From Hydrurus foetidus (lineage: Eukaryota): 59,691 nt of DNA. A program made the position numbers and the translations under genes. Below are positions 663-49,255 of this stretch, one piece after another (the stretch's first letter is position 1; each line of letters starts with the position of its first letter). The stretch is from NCBI GenBank assembly GCA_900617105.1, contig UYFQ01000506.1:310001-369691 (forward strand), in the 5' to 3' direction. Below the pieces are notes generated by a model. That model saw only the letters and a list, made by a program, of their open reading frames with translations, ran no database searches and was not told the DNA's origin.

Positions 663-2315
<1,653 letters not shown>

Positions 2316-2362
2316 TCAAAAGAGAAATAGGGGGTTGGAAAGTCGTTCGGACGGAGGAGGGC

Positions 2363-2653
2363 TTAGGCCTCGACCACGCCCAGAACGTCGCTTTCCTTCA
2401 TGATCAGCAGGTCTTGACCATCGACCTTCACTTCCGTGCCCGACCACTTGCCGAACAGGATGCGATCGCCAGCCTTCACGTCCAGAGCGACGACGTCGCC
2501 CTTGTCGTTACGGGCGCCGGGGCCGACGGCGACAACTTCGCCTTCTTGCGGCTTTTCCTTGGCGGTGTCGGGGATGATGATCCCGCCCTTGGTCTTGGTT
2601 TCTTCTTCGACGCGCTTCACGAGGACGCGGTCGCCCAGGGGACGAAATTTCAT
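2363..2653 (-). CDS. groES: co-chaperonin GroES
   Basis: [14 protein letters not shown]...[16 protein letters not shown]. Confidence 0.99.
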
Positions 2654-2712
2654 AGGATGTTCTCCGTCGGGACGGTTAGAATTAGGGATCGCCAGCGAGG
2701 GAAGCACTGCTG

Positions 2713-2739
2713 TTAGCAGTCGCCCCCGGTGAGTGCCAG
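2713..2739 (-). promoter_or_regulatory. CIRCE element (HrcA operator)
   Basis: ttagcagtc-N9-gagtgccag against consensus TTAGCACTC-N9-GAGTGCTAA, upstream of groES. Confidence 0.9.
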
Positions 2740-2860
2740 CGCCGGGCAGGAGGTAGTGCCGGGGGATGGCGGAGTCAAGGATTGCGCCCTCCGATTCTGG
2801 CGCGCCAAATGCCCCGCGCCGCCTCGGCGGCCAGCCAGGACAGGCTTAAGGACAGGCTTG

Positions 2861-3256
2861 ATGAAACGTTTTCTACCCTCGGCCCTGGCGGCCAGTCTGG
2901 GCCTGATCCTTGTGGCGGGTTGCGTCAGCGCGCCCCCGCCACCGCCTGGTCCCGCGACGGTTTCGGACGCTGGACCGGTCGTTCTGGCGCCCGGGCAGGC
3001 GCTGCGGATCGAACTGCCGCTGAACGCCGGCACGGGCTATTCCTGGCGGCTGGATCGGGAGGCGGACGGCACGGTTCTGAGCGGCGGCTCCAGCCAGACC
3101 ACCAACGCCGCCCTGCCGGGCGGGGCGATCATGACGATCTTTACCTATCAGGCCACGGGGCGCGGCACGGCCGAACTGTCCTTCACCCTCAAGCAGCCGT
3201 GGATGCCCGACACGGCCGGCGACACCCGACGGGTCTTCAGGGTGCTGGTCAAATGA
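2861..3256 (+). CDS. lipoprotein with chagasin-like (inhibitor I42) domain
   Basis: Lipobox LVAGC; motifs NAGTGYSW, PGG, QPW. Confidence 0.8.
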   Translation: MKRFLPSALAASLGLILVAGCVSAPPPPPGPATVSDAGPVVLAPGQALRIELPLNAGTGYSWRLDREADGTVLSGGSSQTTNAALPGGAIMTIFTYQATGRGTAELSFTLKQPWMPDTAGDTRRVFRVLVK

Positions 3257-3589
3257 TCGATCATATCACCCTGGGCGTGGCGGATTTTGATCGCTCGGCG
3301 GCCTTCTGGCGACACGCCCTGGCGCCGCTGAGCCGTCCGGCGTCTCCACCGTGCCGCCGGTCACCCCAGGCCGTTCCATCGCCGGCAGGATGCGGCGTGG
3401 CGTTTGGCCAGACCACGGCCCAGGTCGACGCTCTTCATGCGGCCGCTGGCGGCGGGCGGGCGAGACAACGGTCCGCCCGGACTTCGCCCTCATTGTCATC
3501 CAGACTATGACGGCGCTTTCGTGCTGGACCCGGACGGGTTCAACATCGAGGCCGTCTGTCATGGCGCCGCGCCCGCGGCGCCCGTCTGA
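3253..3589 (+). CDS. VOC/glyoxalase family protein (frameshifted)
   Basis: MIDHITLGVADFDRSAAF... and ...YDGAFVLDPDGFNIEAVCH in different frames. Confidence 0.85.
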
Positions 3590-3614
3590 ACCGACCTCAA
3601 GGAGCGCCCCGCGC

Positions 3615-4031
3615 ATGTCGAGCTATGCCCTGTCCCTGCTGCTGGCCGTGCTCGCCTGCGTGATCGGTGGCGCGCTGGGCGGCATCGCCCTGGCCAGGCC
3701 GGCCCAGGGGCTTGGCATGGCGGGCCTCGCCCAGGGTGAGGCCACGCTGCCCCCGCTGCTGGCGGAGGGACGGGCGTTCGGCGGCCTGCTGGTGCTGTCG
3801 CATGCCGGGGCGGCCCTTTATCTGGGCTACCAGCCGGGGATTGGCGCGGCGATGGCCTTCGTCCTGGCCCTGGCCTGGTTCGGCGTCGCACTGGGTCGCG
3901 CCGCTTCGCTGCTGATCGACAAGGCCGGCGGCCGGTTCAATCTGGGCAACCTCGTCTTCGAGGTGCTGATCGGGACCACCCTGGCGCTGCCGTTTCTCAA
4001 TCCCGCCGTCTGGTGCTGCGCGGCGGGATGA
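3615..4031 (+). CDS. small multi-pass membrane protein (DUF4345-like)
   Basis: Four hydrophobic segments; EGRAFGG and GR..SLLID motifs. Confidence 0.65.
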   Translation: MSSYALSLLLAVLACVIGGALGGIALARPAQGLGMAGLAQGEATLPPLLAEGRAFGGLLVLSHAGAALYLGYQPGIGAAMAFVLALAWFGVALGRAASLLIDKAGGRFNLGNLVFEVLIGTTLALPFLNPAVWCCAAG

Positions 4032-4527
4032 TGAGGCGCGCGCCCTCGTGCCTTAGCAACCACGCCTTGCGCTCGAGACCGCCGCCATAGCCGGTGAGCG
4101 CGCCTGTGGCGCCGACCAGCCGGTGGCACGGCACCAGGATCGCGATGGGATTGGCGCCGTTGGCCGCGCCCACGGCCCGGGTCGCCGCAGGCTTGCCGAT
4201 CCGCGCGGCGAGGGCGGCGTAGGTCGAGGTGGTCCCGGCCGGTACGTCGAGCAGGGCGGTCCAGACCAACCGCAAAGGCCGCCGTCGGTCCCAGGGCAGA
4301 CGCCGCCAGCGTCCGCCGAAATAAGCGCTCAGAGACTGGCGAACTGGCGCCGGCGCCGCGCCATTTTCCGGAGACAGGTCGCCATAGTGCAGGCGCAACA
4401 GACCCATGCGCGGCATGTAGTCGTGAAAATCCAGTGCCCGCACGGAGCCGGTCTCGTCGGTGACCAGCAGGATCTCGCCCAGGGGCGAGCGGAGGCGGTC
4501 AAGGCGGAGGCGTGACGGGCGGGTCAT
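3997..4527 (-). CDS. ogt: methylated-DNA--protein-cysteine methyltransferase
   Basis: RAVGAANGANPIAILVPCHRLVG...GYGGGLERKAWLL.HE. Confidence 0.9.
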   Translation of the reverse strand: MTRPSRLRLDRLRSPLGEILLVTDETGSVRALDFHDYMPRMGLLRLHYGDLSPENGAAPAPVRQSLSAYFGGRWRRLPWDRRRPLRLVWTALLDVPAGTTSTYAALAARIGKPAATRAVGAANGANPIAILVPCHRLVGATGALTGYGGGLERKAWLLRHEGARLIIPPRSTRRRD

Positions 4528-4581
4528 GCAGAGTTTATCCGCGATCGCGAAGCTGCAGTCCGCCCGAATTTTGCGATCATT

Positions 4582-4596
4582 GTTCACTGTTTGTTC
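4582..4596. promoter_or_regulatory. LexA/SOS box (alphaproteobacterial GTTC-N7-GTTC)
   Basis: gttc-actgttt-gttc, exact match, between the divergent ogt and DUF559 genes. Confidence 0.65.
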
Positions 4597-4613
4597 AAGT
4601 CGAGATACATTCT

Positions 4614-5057
4614 CCCTTCCCCCTTGATGGGGGAAGGGCCGGGGATGGGGGTGATGCGGCATGTCCGACAAGCCGAAGCCAAGTCACGCGCCCGGCGCGA
4701 TCCGCCGGGCGCGCAGACTGCGCCGCGACATGACGGTCAGCGAGAGGAGGCTATGGGAAGCTTTGCGGGCCTTGAACCTGCACATCCGCAGACAAGCGCC
4801 GATCGGCCGCTACGTCGCCGACTTCGCCCATCATGGCGTCAAACTGGTCATAGAAGTGGATGGCGGTCGGCATGACCTGCCCGAGGCGCAATTGCGAGAC
4901 GCCGAGCGCGACGCGTGGCTGACCGCGCAGGGTTATAGGGTCATGCGGGTTCGGGACCGCGATGCGTACGAATATCCGTACGACATCGCCGAGCGTGTCG
5001 CGGCTGAGATTCAGCGGTCACCCCCATCCCAACCCTTCCCCCATCAAGGGGGAAGGG
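4614..5057. mobile_element. DUF559 gene flanked by ~40-bp hairpin-containing terminal inverted repeats
   Basis: Left arm cccttcccccttgatgggggaagggccggggatgggggtga (4614-4654) is the near-perfect reverse complement of the right arm (5018-5057). Confidence 0.7.
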
Positions 5058-5062
5058 CTTAG
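4661..5062 (+). CDS. DUF559 / Vsr-like PD-(D/E)XK endonuclease
   Basis: ARRLRRDMTVSERRLW..LR, RRQAPIGRYVADF, LVIEVDGGRH, RDAERDAWL..QGYRVMR. Confidence 0.92.
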   Translation: MSDKPKPSHAPGAIRRARRLRRDMTVSERRLWEALRALNLHIRRQAPIGRYVADFAHHGVKLVIEVDGGRHDLPEAQLRDAERDAWLTAQGYRVMRVRDRDAYEYPYDIAERVAAEIQRSPPSQPFPHQGGRA

Positions 5063-5066
5063 ACGA

Positions 5067-5565
5067 TCAGCGAATACCCGGAACGTGCAGGGCCGCTTCT
5101 TTCTCGGCCTTCTGCTTGAAGACCAGGTCGCCGTACTTGCCGTATTCCATGCGGGCGATGGTGCGCTGGTGCACTTCATCCGGGCCGTCGGCCAGGCGCA
5201 GGGTGCGGATGCCGGCATAGGCCTTGGCGAGACCGAAGTCGGTGGTCACGCCGCCGCCGCCGTGGGCCTGGATGGCGTCGTCGATGATCTTCAGGGCCAG
5301 GCGCGGGGCCGCGACCTTGATCATGGCGATCTCCAGACGGGCCGACTTGTTGCCGGCCTTGTCCATCATGTCGGCGGCCTTCAGGCACAGCAGGCGGCAC
5401 ATCTCGATGTCGATGCGGGCGTCGGCGACGCGTTCTTCCCAGACCGACTGGTCGGAGATGAACTTGCCGAACGCCTTGCGGCTCATCAGGCGCTTGCACA
5501 TCTTTTCCAGCGCGACTTCCGCCGTGCCGATGGTGCGCATGCAGTGGTGGATACGGCCGGGGCCA

Positions 5566-5597
<32 letters not shown>

Positions 5598-6372
5598 TTC
5601 GCCCAGCAGCAGGGCGTCTTCCACCGGAACGCGGACGTTCTTGAGGATCACCTCGGCATGGCCGTGCGGGGCGTCGTCATAGCCGAACACCGGCAGCATG
5701 CGGACGATCTCGATGCCGGCGCGTCCAGCGGCACCAGGACCTGGCTCTGCTGAGCGTGGCGGCTGGCGTTGTCGGGTCGGTCTTGCCCATGACGATGGCG
5801 ACCTTGCAGCGCGGATCGCCCACGCCCGAGGACCACCACTTGCGGCCGTTGATCACATAGTGGTCGCCGTCGCGCTCGATGCGGGTCTCGATATTGGTGG
5901 CGTCCGAGGAGGCCACGTCCGGCTCGGTCATCAGGAAGGCGCTGCGGATCTCGCCGTTCATCAGCGGGCGCAGCCAGCGCTCCTTCTGCTCCAGCGTGCC
6001 GTAGCGCATCAGCACTTCCATGTTGCCGGTGTCGGGTGCCGAGCAGTTGAAGACTTCCGACGCGAAGCCGACCTTGCCCAGCTGCTCGGCGATCAGGCTG
6101 TATTCCAGGTTAGTCAGTTGCACGCCCTCGAAGACGAAGGTGTCGTCGACGTGGGTCTAGCCGCTGTGCGGCGGCATGAAGAAGTTCCACAGCCCGGCCG
6201 CCTTGGCCTTGGCCTTCAGTTCCTCGACGACCTGCACGACCTTCCAGCGCTCGGCGCCGAGGACGTTCATCTCGGCCTCGTATCGCGGGATGGCCGGCAC
6301 GATGTGCTCGTCCATGAACGCGGTGACGCGATCGAGGAATTGCCGCTGCGTGGGGGAGATGTCGAAATCCAT
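5067..6372 (-). CDS. acyl-CoA dehydrogenase (frameshifted)
   Basis: [49 protein letters not shown]. Confidence 0.95.
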
Positions 6373-6392
6373 GGCGCTTCCCAATCCCTGTC

Positions 6393-6410
6393 TTCAAACG
6401 TTTGTTTGAA
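6393..6410. promoter_or_regulatory. PsrA-like palindromic operator
   Basis: ttcaaac-gttt-gtttgaa dyad about 20 bp upstream of the acyl-CoA dehydrogenase. Confidence 0.65.
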
Positions 6411-6499
6411 GTGGTTGTAGCACCGGGCTGACGCGGACGGCAAGATGGGATGGCAAGCAGACTTGCAGCCGTGGGGCGGCGCCCTTCAAGATGCCCGCC

Positions 6500-7101
6500 A
6501 TGAACATCCAGATTCTCCCCCTCAACGGCCGCCATGTGCGGCTGGAACCCATCACGCCTGACCTGCCCGGGCCCTGCGCGACGAATTGCGCGCCGCGATC
6601 GACTGCGATCCCGCCAGCTGGGAAATCATGTCGACCAACGGCTGCGGCGAGGGCTTCGAGGACTGGTGGGGCGCGCTGCAGGGCGAGACCCAGCGCGGCG
6701 AGCGCATCGGCTTCGCCATCCGCCGGCTGTCCGACGGCAAGGTGGTGGGCACGTCCAGCTATCTGAACATCCGCCGCCTGCACAAGGGTCTGGAGGTCGG
6801 CTCGACCTTCCTGCATCCGGACGCGCGCTCAGGCCCGATCAATCCGGAGAGCAAGCGGCTGATGCTGGGCCACGCCTTCGCGGCCGGCGCCATCCGGGTG
6901 GAGTTCATGATCGATGTCCGCAATGCCCGCAGCCAGGCGGCCATCACAAAGCTGGGCGCCGACAAGGACGGCGTGCTGCGCAATCACAAGATCACCTGGA
7001 CGGGCCACGTGCGCGACACGGCCGTGTTCTCGATTACCGACGCCGATTGGCCGGGCGTCAAGCAGCGGCTGGACTTCCGGCTGACGGAGACGTTCGTCTA
7101 G
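6500..7101 (+). CDS. GNAT (RimJ/RimL-like) acetyltransferase (frameshifted)
   Basis: RHVRLEP..., LEVGSTF, NPESKRLMLGHAF, DVRNARSQAAITKLGA. Confidence 0.85.
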
Positions 7102-14785: not shown

Positions 14786-14906
14786 GCTCCTCCTATCCTG
14801 ACCGCTATCGCGGTCGTCCTCCCCCGGAGGGGGAAGATGAGGTCGGCGCGTTTCATCTTCCCCCTCCGGGGGAAGACGGCTGCGAAGCAGCCCGTAGGGG
14901 GCAAGT
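14786..14906. repeat. palindromic intergenic repeat (CIR/REP-like), family shared with 48590-48688
   Basis: Inverted arms cctcccccggagggggaagatga / tcatcttccccctccgggggaag; about 40 bp near-identical to 48594-48636. Confidence 0.75.
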
Positions 14907-14916
14907 TCGCGGAACG

Positions 14917-16190: not shown

Positions 16191-16355
16191 CTGAAATCCT
16201 CTCCCAGAGGGAGAGGAGGGACCCGCCGCGTAGCGGTGGGAGGTGAGGGGTTACGCCGCAACCGGCGCGCCGGCACGCCGTCCTGCGTCCGTAACCCCTC
16301 ACCCTCCCACGCAAGCGTGGGTCCCTCCCTCTCCCTCTGGGAGAGGGCTGAAATC
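16191..16355. mobile_element. MITE-like inverted-repeat element flanked by an 8-bp direct repeat
   Basis: Terminal hairpins cctctccc-aga-gggagagg at both ends, long inverted arms; ctgaaatc at 16191-16198 and 16348-16355. Confidence 0.7.
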
Positions 16356-38994: not shown

Positions 38995-39045
38995 CGGGGA
39001 TACGCCGTGCTCAATCCCCGTTCTTTTGAGAACAAACCCCAGCCC

Positions 39046-39107
39046 AATCAACCGCTTGTAAAATAGTTGATCGCGCCCATCAGACGCGCTCAAACCTCCC
39101 GTATTCT
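39046..39107 (+). promoter_or_regulatory. IHF-consensus site plus putative -10 (copy 1)
   Basis: aatcaaccgcttg fits WATCAANNNNTTR; tattct at 39102-39107; block conserved in copy 2. Confidence 0.5.
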
Positions 39108-39109
39108 TG

Positions 39110-39505
39110 TCCCACCTCGTCGCGAGGAAAGGGCGCAAGGCCAGCGACCATTGCGGCGGCGGGGGGTGATCGAGCGGGACTGGGGTCGAGGGGGATACTC
39201 GACCGGTCCGGGGATCCTGGCGTTGCAGGACCCGCCCGCCGTCGGCGTGGATGGGGATCAAGGCGAGTGTTGGTCAGGATTGGCCCCACGCCCCCCGACC
39301 TCCGGGACTTCGGGAAACCGAAGCTTCCGGGTTCCGGTAAGGCCCCAACTGGGCCACCCGCTGGGACGCTGATGGATAACGACCACGCGGAGCGCTCGGC
39401 TTCGTCGAAACGGTATTTTCTATCTCTCATCCGGACGTGGTCCGGACGCTCCGCGACCCTTTCCACCCCCATCGGCGGTTTTCCGCGCGAGGTGTGAAAC
39501 CGTGT
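39110..39505 (+). ncRNA. candidate large structured RNA, copy 1
   Basis: No credible ORF; conserved blocks and covarying stems relative to 48695-49130 (-). Confidence 0.55.
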
Positions 39506-48589: not shown

Positions 48590-48688
48590 GCTTCGCGGTC
48601 GTCCTCCCCCGTAGGGGGAAGATGAGGTCGGCGCGTGTCAAATCCCCCTCCGGGGGACCCCGGTCGCGAAGCCCCCATAGGGGGAAGT
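48590..48688. repeat. palindromic intergenic repeat, second copy of the 14786-14906 family
   Basis: cgcggtcgtcctcccccgtagggggaagatgaggtcggcgcgt shared. Confidence 0.75.
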
Positions 48689-48694
48689 CTGGCG

Positions 48695-49130
48695 GACACG
48701 GGCTCTCAGCCTCACGCGGCATCAGCCACTGAAGTTGGGGAGGCGCGAAGCGGCCGGGGCGAACCCGGATGACCGTGATGTGTGTTTTGCGTTTCGGCTC
48801 GACCTGTCCGCTTCGCAGAAGCTGTTCTTGCGTGAGGATCGGGCCAAGCGAGCGTCTTTCAGCTCTGATACCCAAGAGCCCCCGTACGGGCGCGCACCAA
48901 GGTCGATCGGCTAACCGTCTCGACCCCCGACGATGCGCGATAGGCGGGTTTACGATCCCTCGCCCTGTTGCTCCGCGCTGTTCCTCCGACGAGCCTTCCG
49001 GTGGTCCCGGATCAATCCAACGAACAGACCACCTTCGTCCTCGCCGCGTGACCGCGCGGCCCCGCTCAGCTCCATCCCCATCGCCGCTGTTGGGCCGGAT
49101 CCAGGCGCCTCCCCCTGCGACAGGGACAGC
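48695..49130 (-). ncRNA. candidate large structured RNA, copy 2
   Basis: Same ordered blocks and stems as 39110-39505 with compensatory substitutions. Confidence 0.55.
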
Positions 49131-49134
49131 TCTG

Positions 49135-49196
49135 ATTATGCAGGCGGTTTGAGCGCCGAGGATTGGCGCGATCAACTATTTTACAAGCGATTGATT
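49135..49196 (-). promoter_or_regulatory. IHF-consensus site plus putative -10 (copy 2)
   Basis: - strand aatcaatcgcttg (49196-49184); cataat (49140-49135). Confidence 0.5.
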
Positions 49197-49255
49197 GGGC
49201 TGGAGTTTGGTCTGCAAAGAACGGGGATTGAGCGCCCTCTATCCCCGTGCGGCCT

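Follow-up and report, generated by a model that had tools for sequence, protein, structure and literature searches.

A DUF559 gene between two hairpin arms

The window, the whole 59,691-nucleotide stretch of DNA analysed here (59.7 kb), contains a unit of 450 bp in which a DUF559 gene is placed between two inverted hairpin arms. The locus is organised as follows.

3997-4527, minus strand: ogt-like methylguanine methyltransferase gene, divergent host neighbour (Pfam PF01035, PF02870)
4582-4596, plus strand: perfect GTTC-N7-GTTC box, the Caulobacter LexA consensus, in an AT-rich stretch accompanying the cassette at this site
4614-4654, plus strand: left arm, 41 nt, a 10-bp hairpin (4614-4638) followed by a G-rich tail
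4661-5062, plus strand: DUF559 gene, 133 aa (Pfam DUF559, E 4.9e-27)
5018-5057, minus strand: right arm, 40 nt, an inverted copy with tail and hairpin (5033-5057), translated as the C-terminus
5067-5699, minus strand: acyl-CoA dehydrogenase (ACAD) gene, 3' part, convergent host neighbour (Pfam PF00441)

The inverted-repeat alignment of the two arms has 38 identities, 2 mismatches and 1 gap. Their alignment score of 65 compares with a mean of 21 and a 99th percentile of 35 in 1846 control window pairs of the same size, which bears out the original prediction that inverted arms of 40-41 bp with 10-bp hairpins enclose a 133-aa DUF559 gene. Each arm forms a 10-bp C-run/G-run stem with a 5-nt loop (∼-13 kcal/mol as DNA). 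The reading frame runs on across the right arm, as had also been proposed: the stop codon lies 3 nt past it, and the last 14 codons (residues 120-133) consist of the right arm and its flank. Contigs from public runs reproduce the cassette, those of run X1 over 4433-5060 with 0 differences (X1 is possibly the window's own source) and those of run X3 with 5 differences across 4631-5046; the cassette is therefore not an assembly artefact. The arm-bracketed DUF559 cassette is real and does not reflect chance. Several genes at 663-7100 of the window (acyl-CoA dehydrogenase, ogt and an acetyltransferase) look frameshifted, and related contigs carry single-base insertions, which suggests assembly indel errors outside the cassette. 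Rfam returned no match in the window or in loci L143 and L144.

The predicted structure (pLDDT 85 overall, below 50 at residues 124-133, the arm-encoded tail) has the Vsr-like PD-(D/E)XK fold that the original prediction had named. Foldseek matches it to 3hrl, to the catalytic domain of I-Bth0305I (3r3p; E 2e-4) and to Vsr (1vsr; E. coli Vsr 1cw0, E 4e-3), and a profile search reaches 3r3p with an E-value of 1.2e-5. The score against the curated Vsr model TIGR00632 is 14.5 bits, far under the cut-off of 97.85. Residues E28, D54, E65, D67, H71 and D80 are invariant in 48 aligned homologues, from which L069 and L084 were excluded for internal stops. The product is predicted to be a DNA-nicking enzyme. 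It is a single domain of 133 aa without an N-terminal DNA-binding region in the predicted structure, and no cytosine methyltransferase gene adjoins it at this locus, where its neighbours are ogt and the acyl-CoA dehydrogenase gene. Judged by a dN/dS of ∼0.13 (range 0.08-0.26 in 16 in-frame homologue comparisons), the gene is intact and under purifying selection; the values for L023 and L044 (0.64 and 0.44) are artefacts of an out-of-frame alignment. Carriage of DUF559 by phages was considered and rejected, with just 2 weak matches in 50,697 records.

The tail of the left arm likely doubles as a ribosome-binding site: an in-frame ATG or GTG lies 6-9 nt past its GGGGGT in 16/18 of the closest homologues and in 0/13 of the more distant ones. 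The window holds three GTTC-N7-GTTC boxes, a motif described as the LexA consensus of Caulobacter (PMC12907096), and one of them is the box at 4582-4596. At the ogt/ACAD junction this box is present in genomes G001, G084 and G038 and absent from G116 and from the gene-less orthologous junctions. Expression of the cassette at this site would thus likely be SOS-inducible. As a general trait of DUF559 cassettes, LexA control was rejected, since an upstream box occurs at 3/76 homologous loci, all at the ogt/ACAD site, against 7/1016 control windows, and at 1/21 loci of a class-wide sample. A GAAC-N7-GAAC box also lies upstream of a cassette of another type in G001 (L004, type 3; see below).

Distribution of the cassette and its arm families

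The original prediction likened the layout to that of RAYT genes flanked by their REPs and proposed a survey of DUF559 flanks for inverted repeats. Paired arms (score of at least 40) were found at 66/80 homologous loci, compared with 10/1846 control windows, and the layout is general; the 80 loci were retained out of 169 confirmed relatives. The remaining 14/80 have no paired arms. In the class-wide sample (61 evenly chosen genomes of the class, from which 21 full-length loci were fetched), arms were present at 15/21 loci and 0/106 controls. The named loci and genomes were drawn from the same collection, so that these counts are not independent. The reading frame enters the right arm by more than 10 nt in 40 of the 66 arm-bearing loci.

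The 80 loci fall into 31-34 distinct flank clusters, and the cassette in the window is intergenic. The close clade is concentrated in clusters of 20, 14, 7-8, 5, 3 and 2 loci plus singletons. Of the two findings named beforehand as adverse, a general lack of flanks was thus not seen, but residence at fixed syntenic loci was, for much of this clade. In the nearest genome, G001, the cassette is single-copy, and no young copy was found of the type-1 cassette, as we call the one in the window. On this flank evidence, the type-1 gene moves rarely and stays long at one site by inheritance; with a single copy and a clade at a handful of old syntenic sites, the earlier description of the element as autonomous was overstated. 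Coevolution of arm and protein was rejected as something these data show, as the correlation (rho 0.47 over 66 loci) dropped to 0.13 with one locus per site (71/999 permutations) and was not significant once syntenic duplicates were removed.

DUF559 paralogues number 1-10 per genome and have different arms. G001 has five such genes, namely one of type 1, three near-identical ones of type 2 (L001-L003) and one of type 3 (L004), and each type has its own arm family. Of its 15 type-1 hairpin copies, 2 belong to the cassette and 13 lie at 11 other sites. All 11 gene-less sites consist of an arm, a spacer of 27-72 nt and an inverted tail, and 7 retain TGCGGC, as found after the left arm of the cassette. 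These gene-less doublets measure ∼110-155 bp. A search for RAYT/Y1 (PF01797) gave 0 matches in G001, and the same search matched in 6/14 control genomes.

In the window, no third copy of the type-1 hairpin or tail was found outside the cassette. Six gene-less elements had been singled out there as resembling its arms, with the cassette as their possible driver. The elements do exist at those places, but their likeness to type-1 arms is generic (scores 13-28, shuffle maxima 20-27), and most belong with other types:

16191-16347, no strand: gene-less doublet, type 2; score 52 against a shuffle maximum of 27, and 13-14 against type-1 arms; matches the arms of the G001 cassettes L001-L003
38863-38994, no strand: gene-less doublet, type 3; score 131 against a shuffle maximum of 26; matches doublets around L004
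49256-49376, no strand: gene-less doublet, type 3; score 160 against a shuffle maximum of 28

The element at 19465 matches type-3 arms weakly, and those at 14786 and 48590 match none of the three arm types well. The proposal that the type-1 cassette drives these six elements is thus not borne out.

The arm families also show some further features. The elements at 14786-14910 and 48590-48690 form an 'inside-out' doublet family with central hairpins and outer tails, for which there is no matching gene among the five DUF559 genes of G001. L001-L003 have common flanks beyond their arms, ∼27 bp on the left and 3-25 bp on the right, edged by similar GGGT-rich motifs, as though copying had taken donor flanks along or had happened within another cassette system. 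A multicopy element of ∼560 nt (window 38995-39493 and ∼48940-49250; L144:2300-4400, minus strand, positions 54-611) has type-2 cassettes and type-3 doublets at one of its ends; in five congeners it matches dozens of times per genome, with no Rfam match and no obvious gene. Type-1 hairpins are missing from a stretch of 1.6-2 Mb in each chromosome of G001 and G084. Lastly, 5 of the 7 GIY-YIG matches in G001 (L328-L332) are enclosed by inverted hairpins that belong to other repeat families (scores 72-166), which looks like a parallel nuclease-plus-repeat system.

Repeat abundance and site occupancy

A correlation between repeat abundance and the cognate DUF559 allele had been proposed as a check. 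In a sample of 121 congeners, both repeat families were counted and both genes scored; reversed-pattern controls gave 0-1. Cut-offs were set from score tables, at E ≤1e-32 for the type-1 gene (41 genomes, three with broken genes) and E ≤1e-35 for the type-2 gene (53 genomes). Gene absence here means no match with one query, from which true absence may differ, and gene-less repeats were counted as the total minus two arms per gene. The median number of type-1 repeats is 17 in genomes with the type-1 gene and 2 in those without (17 and 1.5 after leaving out two ambiguous genomes). For type-2 repeats, the medians are 8 with the type-2 gene and 0 without. The cross terms are small, with 6 versus 4 type-1 repeats in genomes with and without the type-2 gene, and 3 versus 2 type-2 repeats in genomes with and without the type-1 gene.

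For phylogenetic correction we used a single-gene tree, built from ACAD in the 105 genomes that gave a usable match. PGLS on this tree gave cognate terms with t = 5.8 (type 1) and 3.4 (type 2), and cross terms with t = 0.6 and 0.3. Independent pairs pointed the same way for type 1 (20 higher, 6 lower and 3 tied of 29, p 0.005) and, with p 0.07, for type 2 (12 vs 5 of 17). The correlation thus holds after correction and is clade-specific: in these genome counts, the abundance of either arm family is predicted by the presence of its own DUF559 clade and not by that of the other. Type-1 carriers have ∼10x more gene-less repeats, and the enzyme therefore likely spreads that repeat family.

Exceptions occur in both directions. 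At least 10 hairpins are found in 13/78 genomes without the type-1 gene, and in 8/54 when only gene-less genomes that are at least 95% complete are considered, including 45 hairpins in the complete genome G009; 5/41 carriers have 4 or fewer. Conversely, 25/26 hairpin-free genomes are also without the gene. The ACAD tree contains 29 presence changes among 35 carriers.

Gene-less junctions between ogt and the acyl-CoA dehydrogenase gene, which had been suggested as a place to look for empty sites, were found in relatives. The DUF559 gene is present there in 5/97 genomes with enough sequence, and other congeners have doublets of several other families, a lone hairpin (L093 in G010) or nothing (L100). 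At a second site of the type-1 clade, G002, G004 and G009 have nothing, G001 has another gene and G028 has half a hairpin (L323). Both the lone hairpin of L093 and the half hairpin of L323 still have the right flank of the cassette, and the cassette was probably deleted at these sites. Five gene-less doublets of G084 correspond in G001 to 20 unrelated bases, another repeat family (twice), a gene and a GIY-YIG cassette (L330); for the G084 doublets L146-L149 and L160, orthologous G001 sites were not located.

By eye, no target duplication was seen at the compared filled and empty sites, where spacer bases are exchanged instead. Since the flanks are only 87-98% identical, short target duplications may have decayed. 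Orthologous spacers (the ogt/ACAD junction, L092-L116; L154/L282; L157/L284) carry different repeat families in different species and have been rewritten entirely, up to the start or stop codon. As unrelated repeat families overwrite the same spacers, a host process may lie behind the replacement signature. The single copy, the long residence at few sites and the lack of target duplication together argue that the cassette is more like a REPtron than like an active insertion sequence.

Proposed mechanism and relation to known systems

We lean slightly towards a model in which the DUF559 protein recognises and nicks its own arm family, the presumed substrate being the extruded hairpin. The nick would form no covalent intermediate and would be resolved by host repair or recombination. 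Here, repair would copy the arm-bounded unit into an intergenic spacer, overwriting the adjoining spacer bases. Gene-less doublets would then arise through internal deletion, seeding the arm family around the genome and outliving the gene. We know of no strand-transfer chemistry for a Vsr-type domain, and mobilisation by the DUF559 protein is something we infer from the comparisons above.

The rival readings turn in part on VsrA (CCNA_02930), a DUF559 protein of Caulobacter crescentus on which the SOS response of scmA mutants depends in vivo. Its LexA box lies ∼133 bp into the annotated ORF, and its authors propose a mismatch-repair enzyme that nicks T:G mismatches, with a nucleolytic specificity they state to be not characterised (PMC12907096). 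The published vsrA start primer matches 7/127 congeners. At these orthologous sites, 4/7 have a DUF559 gene reading into a downstream hairpin doublet and 3/7 have no gene, one of them being a clean empty site. In L320, the VsrA orthologue (53/117 identical), the box is found at +133, the end-primer sequence is present and the frame continues into a hairpin arm. The box, the read-through into a doublet and the gene-less sites make it likely that VsrA belongs to the same class as the DUF559 cassettes, with arms on one side only.

If the VsrA proposal applies here, the protein would be a host repair or hairpin-processing nuclease, its arms would hitch-hike and be kept as ribosome-binding site and transcript-end structure, and the doublets would be spread by something else. 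This account can draw on the strong purifying selection, the long residence at fixed sites, the adjoining LexA box and repair gene (ogt), the placement of the tail as a ribosome-binding site and the VsrA genetics. It does not, however, predict that a clade tracks only the genome-wide count of its own arm family, that presence changes so often on the ACAD tree or that paralogues with different arms accumulate within a genome, and the VsrA specificity it would build on is uncharacterised by the paper's own statement. We consider it unlikely.

Cause and effect could also be reversed. Abundant repeats would then favour keeping or capturing a cognate nuclease, which resolves or polices hairpins or whose toxicity the repeats titrate, and the gene would make no copies. 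High repeat numbers without the gene (45 in G009, 64 in G115) and 46 repeats beside a broken gene (G095) fit this idea, but the doublets retain inner sequence of the cassette, as deletion derivatives would, and nearly all hairpin-free genomes also have no gene, which makes it improbable in our view. Likewise improbable in our view is that a different enzyme (an IS transposase, a RAYT or a GIY-YIG nuclease) moves the arms in the manner of MITEs and the gene is passively carried along: a GIY-YIG cassette does occupy the site of a G084 type-1 doublet and type-2 copies do have up to ∼27 bp of common flank, but compared sites show no duplicated target by eye, G001 has no PF01797 match, GIY-YIG genes have their own, different arms, and other genes are seldom bracketed in this way (10/1846 control windows).

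Extending the nick-and-repair model, DUF559 cassettes could be a class of their own, namely selfish, SOS-responsive elements by which hairpin repeats spread with no transposase involved, and in which every clade maintains a repeat family of its own. They would then be the missing partners of CIR/RIME/BoxC-type repeats, VsrA would be the enzyme of such an element rather than of mismatch repair, and the damage in scmA mutants would reflect off-target cutting. We put this forward tentatively and would ourselves sooner doubt it than rely on it. Even in the case of REPs, the spread of short intergenic hairpin repeats has yet to be explained (PMC8266576). The genus is tractable and has three DUF559 clades with three arm families that can be told apart, which allows a direct test of cognate against non-cognate pairs. 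The model also suggests what DUF559/YcjD may do and casts the published VsrA phenotype, for which there are deletion strains, in another light.

Among known systems, VsrA has the DUF559 domain, the same acidic and histidine residues and a GTTC-N7-GTTC box just upstream of the domain; it differs in locus and arm family and in having arms only downstream of the gene, and the passages concerned in its paper make no mention of repeats (PMC12907096). E. coli ycjD, also a DUF559 gene, likewise has its end within a hairpin of the C-run/G-run kind; another of these, with a G-rich tail, follows ∼170 nt beyond, and the repeats are probably BoxC. Unlike the cassette, ycjD has no upstream arm of this type, and its hairpin matches the type-1 arm in 27/37 columns, a score of 23 that is not above shuffle maxima. 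By description rather than by sequence, the doublets are like the CIR1-4 repeats of the same genus, Caulobacter, which are intergenic elements of ∼110-150 bp with two hairpin arms and a linker; a review states their mobility mechanism as unknown and, in the part concerned, names no mobilising enzyme (PMC2229807). Unlike CIR, the arms have no GANTC in their loops, the sole GANTC in 4601-5070 lying at 5008, outside the arms.

The catalytic fold and the E-D-H-D residues are those of the EDxHD homing endonuclease I-Bth0305I (3r3p; PMC3239194) and of E. coli Vsr (1cw0). Unlike EDxHD homing endonucleases, the cassette lacks an N-terminal DNA-binding region and is neither housed in an intron or intein nor tied to a single conserved homing site, and unlike Vsr, it has no adjoining cytosine methyltransferase and scores below the family cut-off. 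With insertion sequences and MITEs of the DDE type it has terminal inverted repeats in common, but in the comparisons made by eye, spacer bases were replaced and no target-site duplication was seen.

In the literature covered, which left aside subscription journals and bioRxiv supplements, we found nothing that connects palindromic repeats with genes of the DUF559, YcjD or Vsr-like kind; this includes the parts consulted of PMC10969869, PMC2267715, PMC1189080 and bioRxiv 2024.08.01.606150. The closest parallel is the REPtron (RAYT/TnpA-REP with REP/REPIN/BIME). Here, too, a mostly single-copy, housekeeping-like gene lies between two inverted palindromes, gene-less doublets occur elsewhere, and the presence of the gene correlates with the abundance of the cognate repeat (PMC2817692, PMC8266576). 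Unlike in REPtrons, the enzyme is a Vsr-like PD-(D/E)XK protein (Pfam DUF559 only) instead of an HUH/Y1 tyrosine transposase, a C-run/G-run stem with a G-rich tail takes the place of a conserved GTAG head at arms or flanks, the frame reads through the right arm, and the sister type-2 clade is multicopy. Taken together, the cassette varies the REPtron design by using another class of nuclease, and this variant is apparently unpublished.
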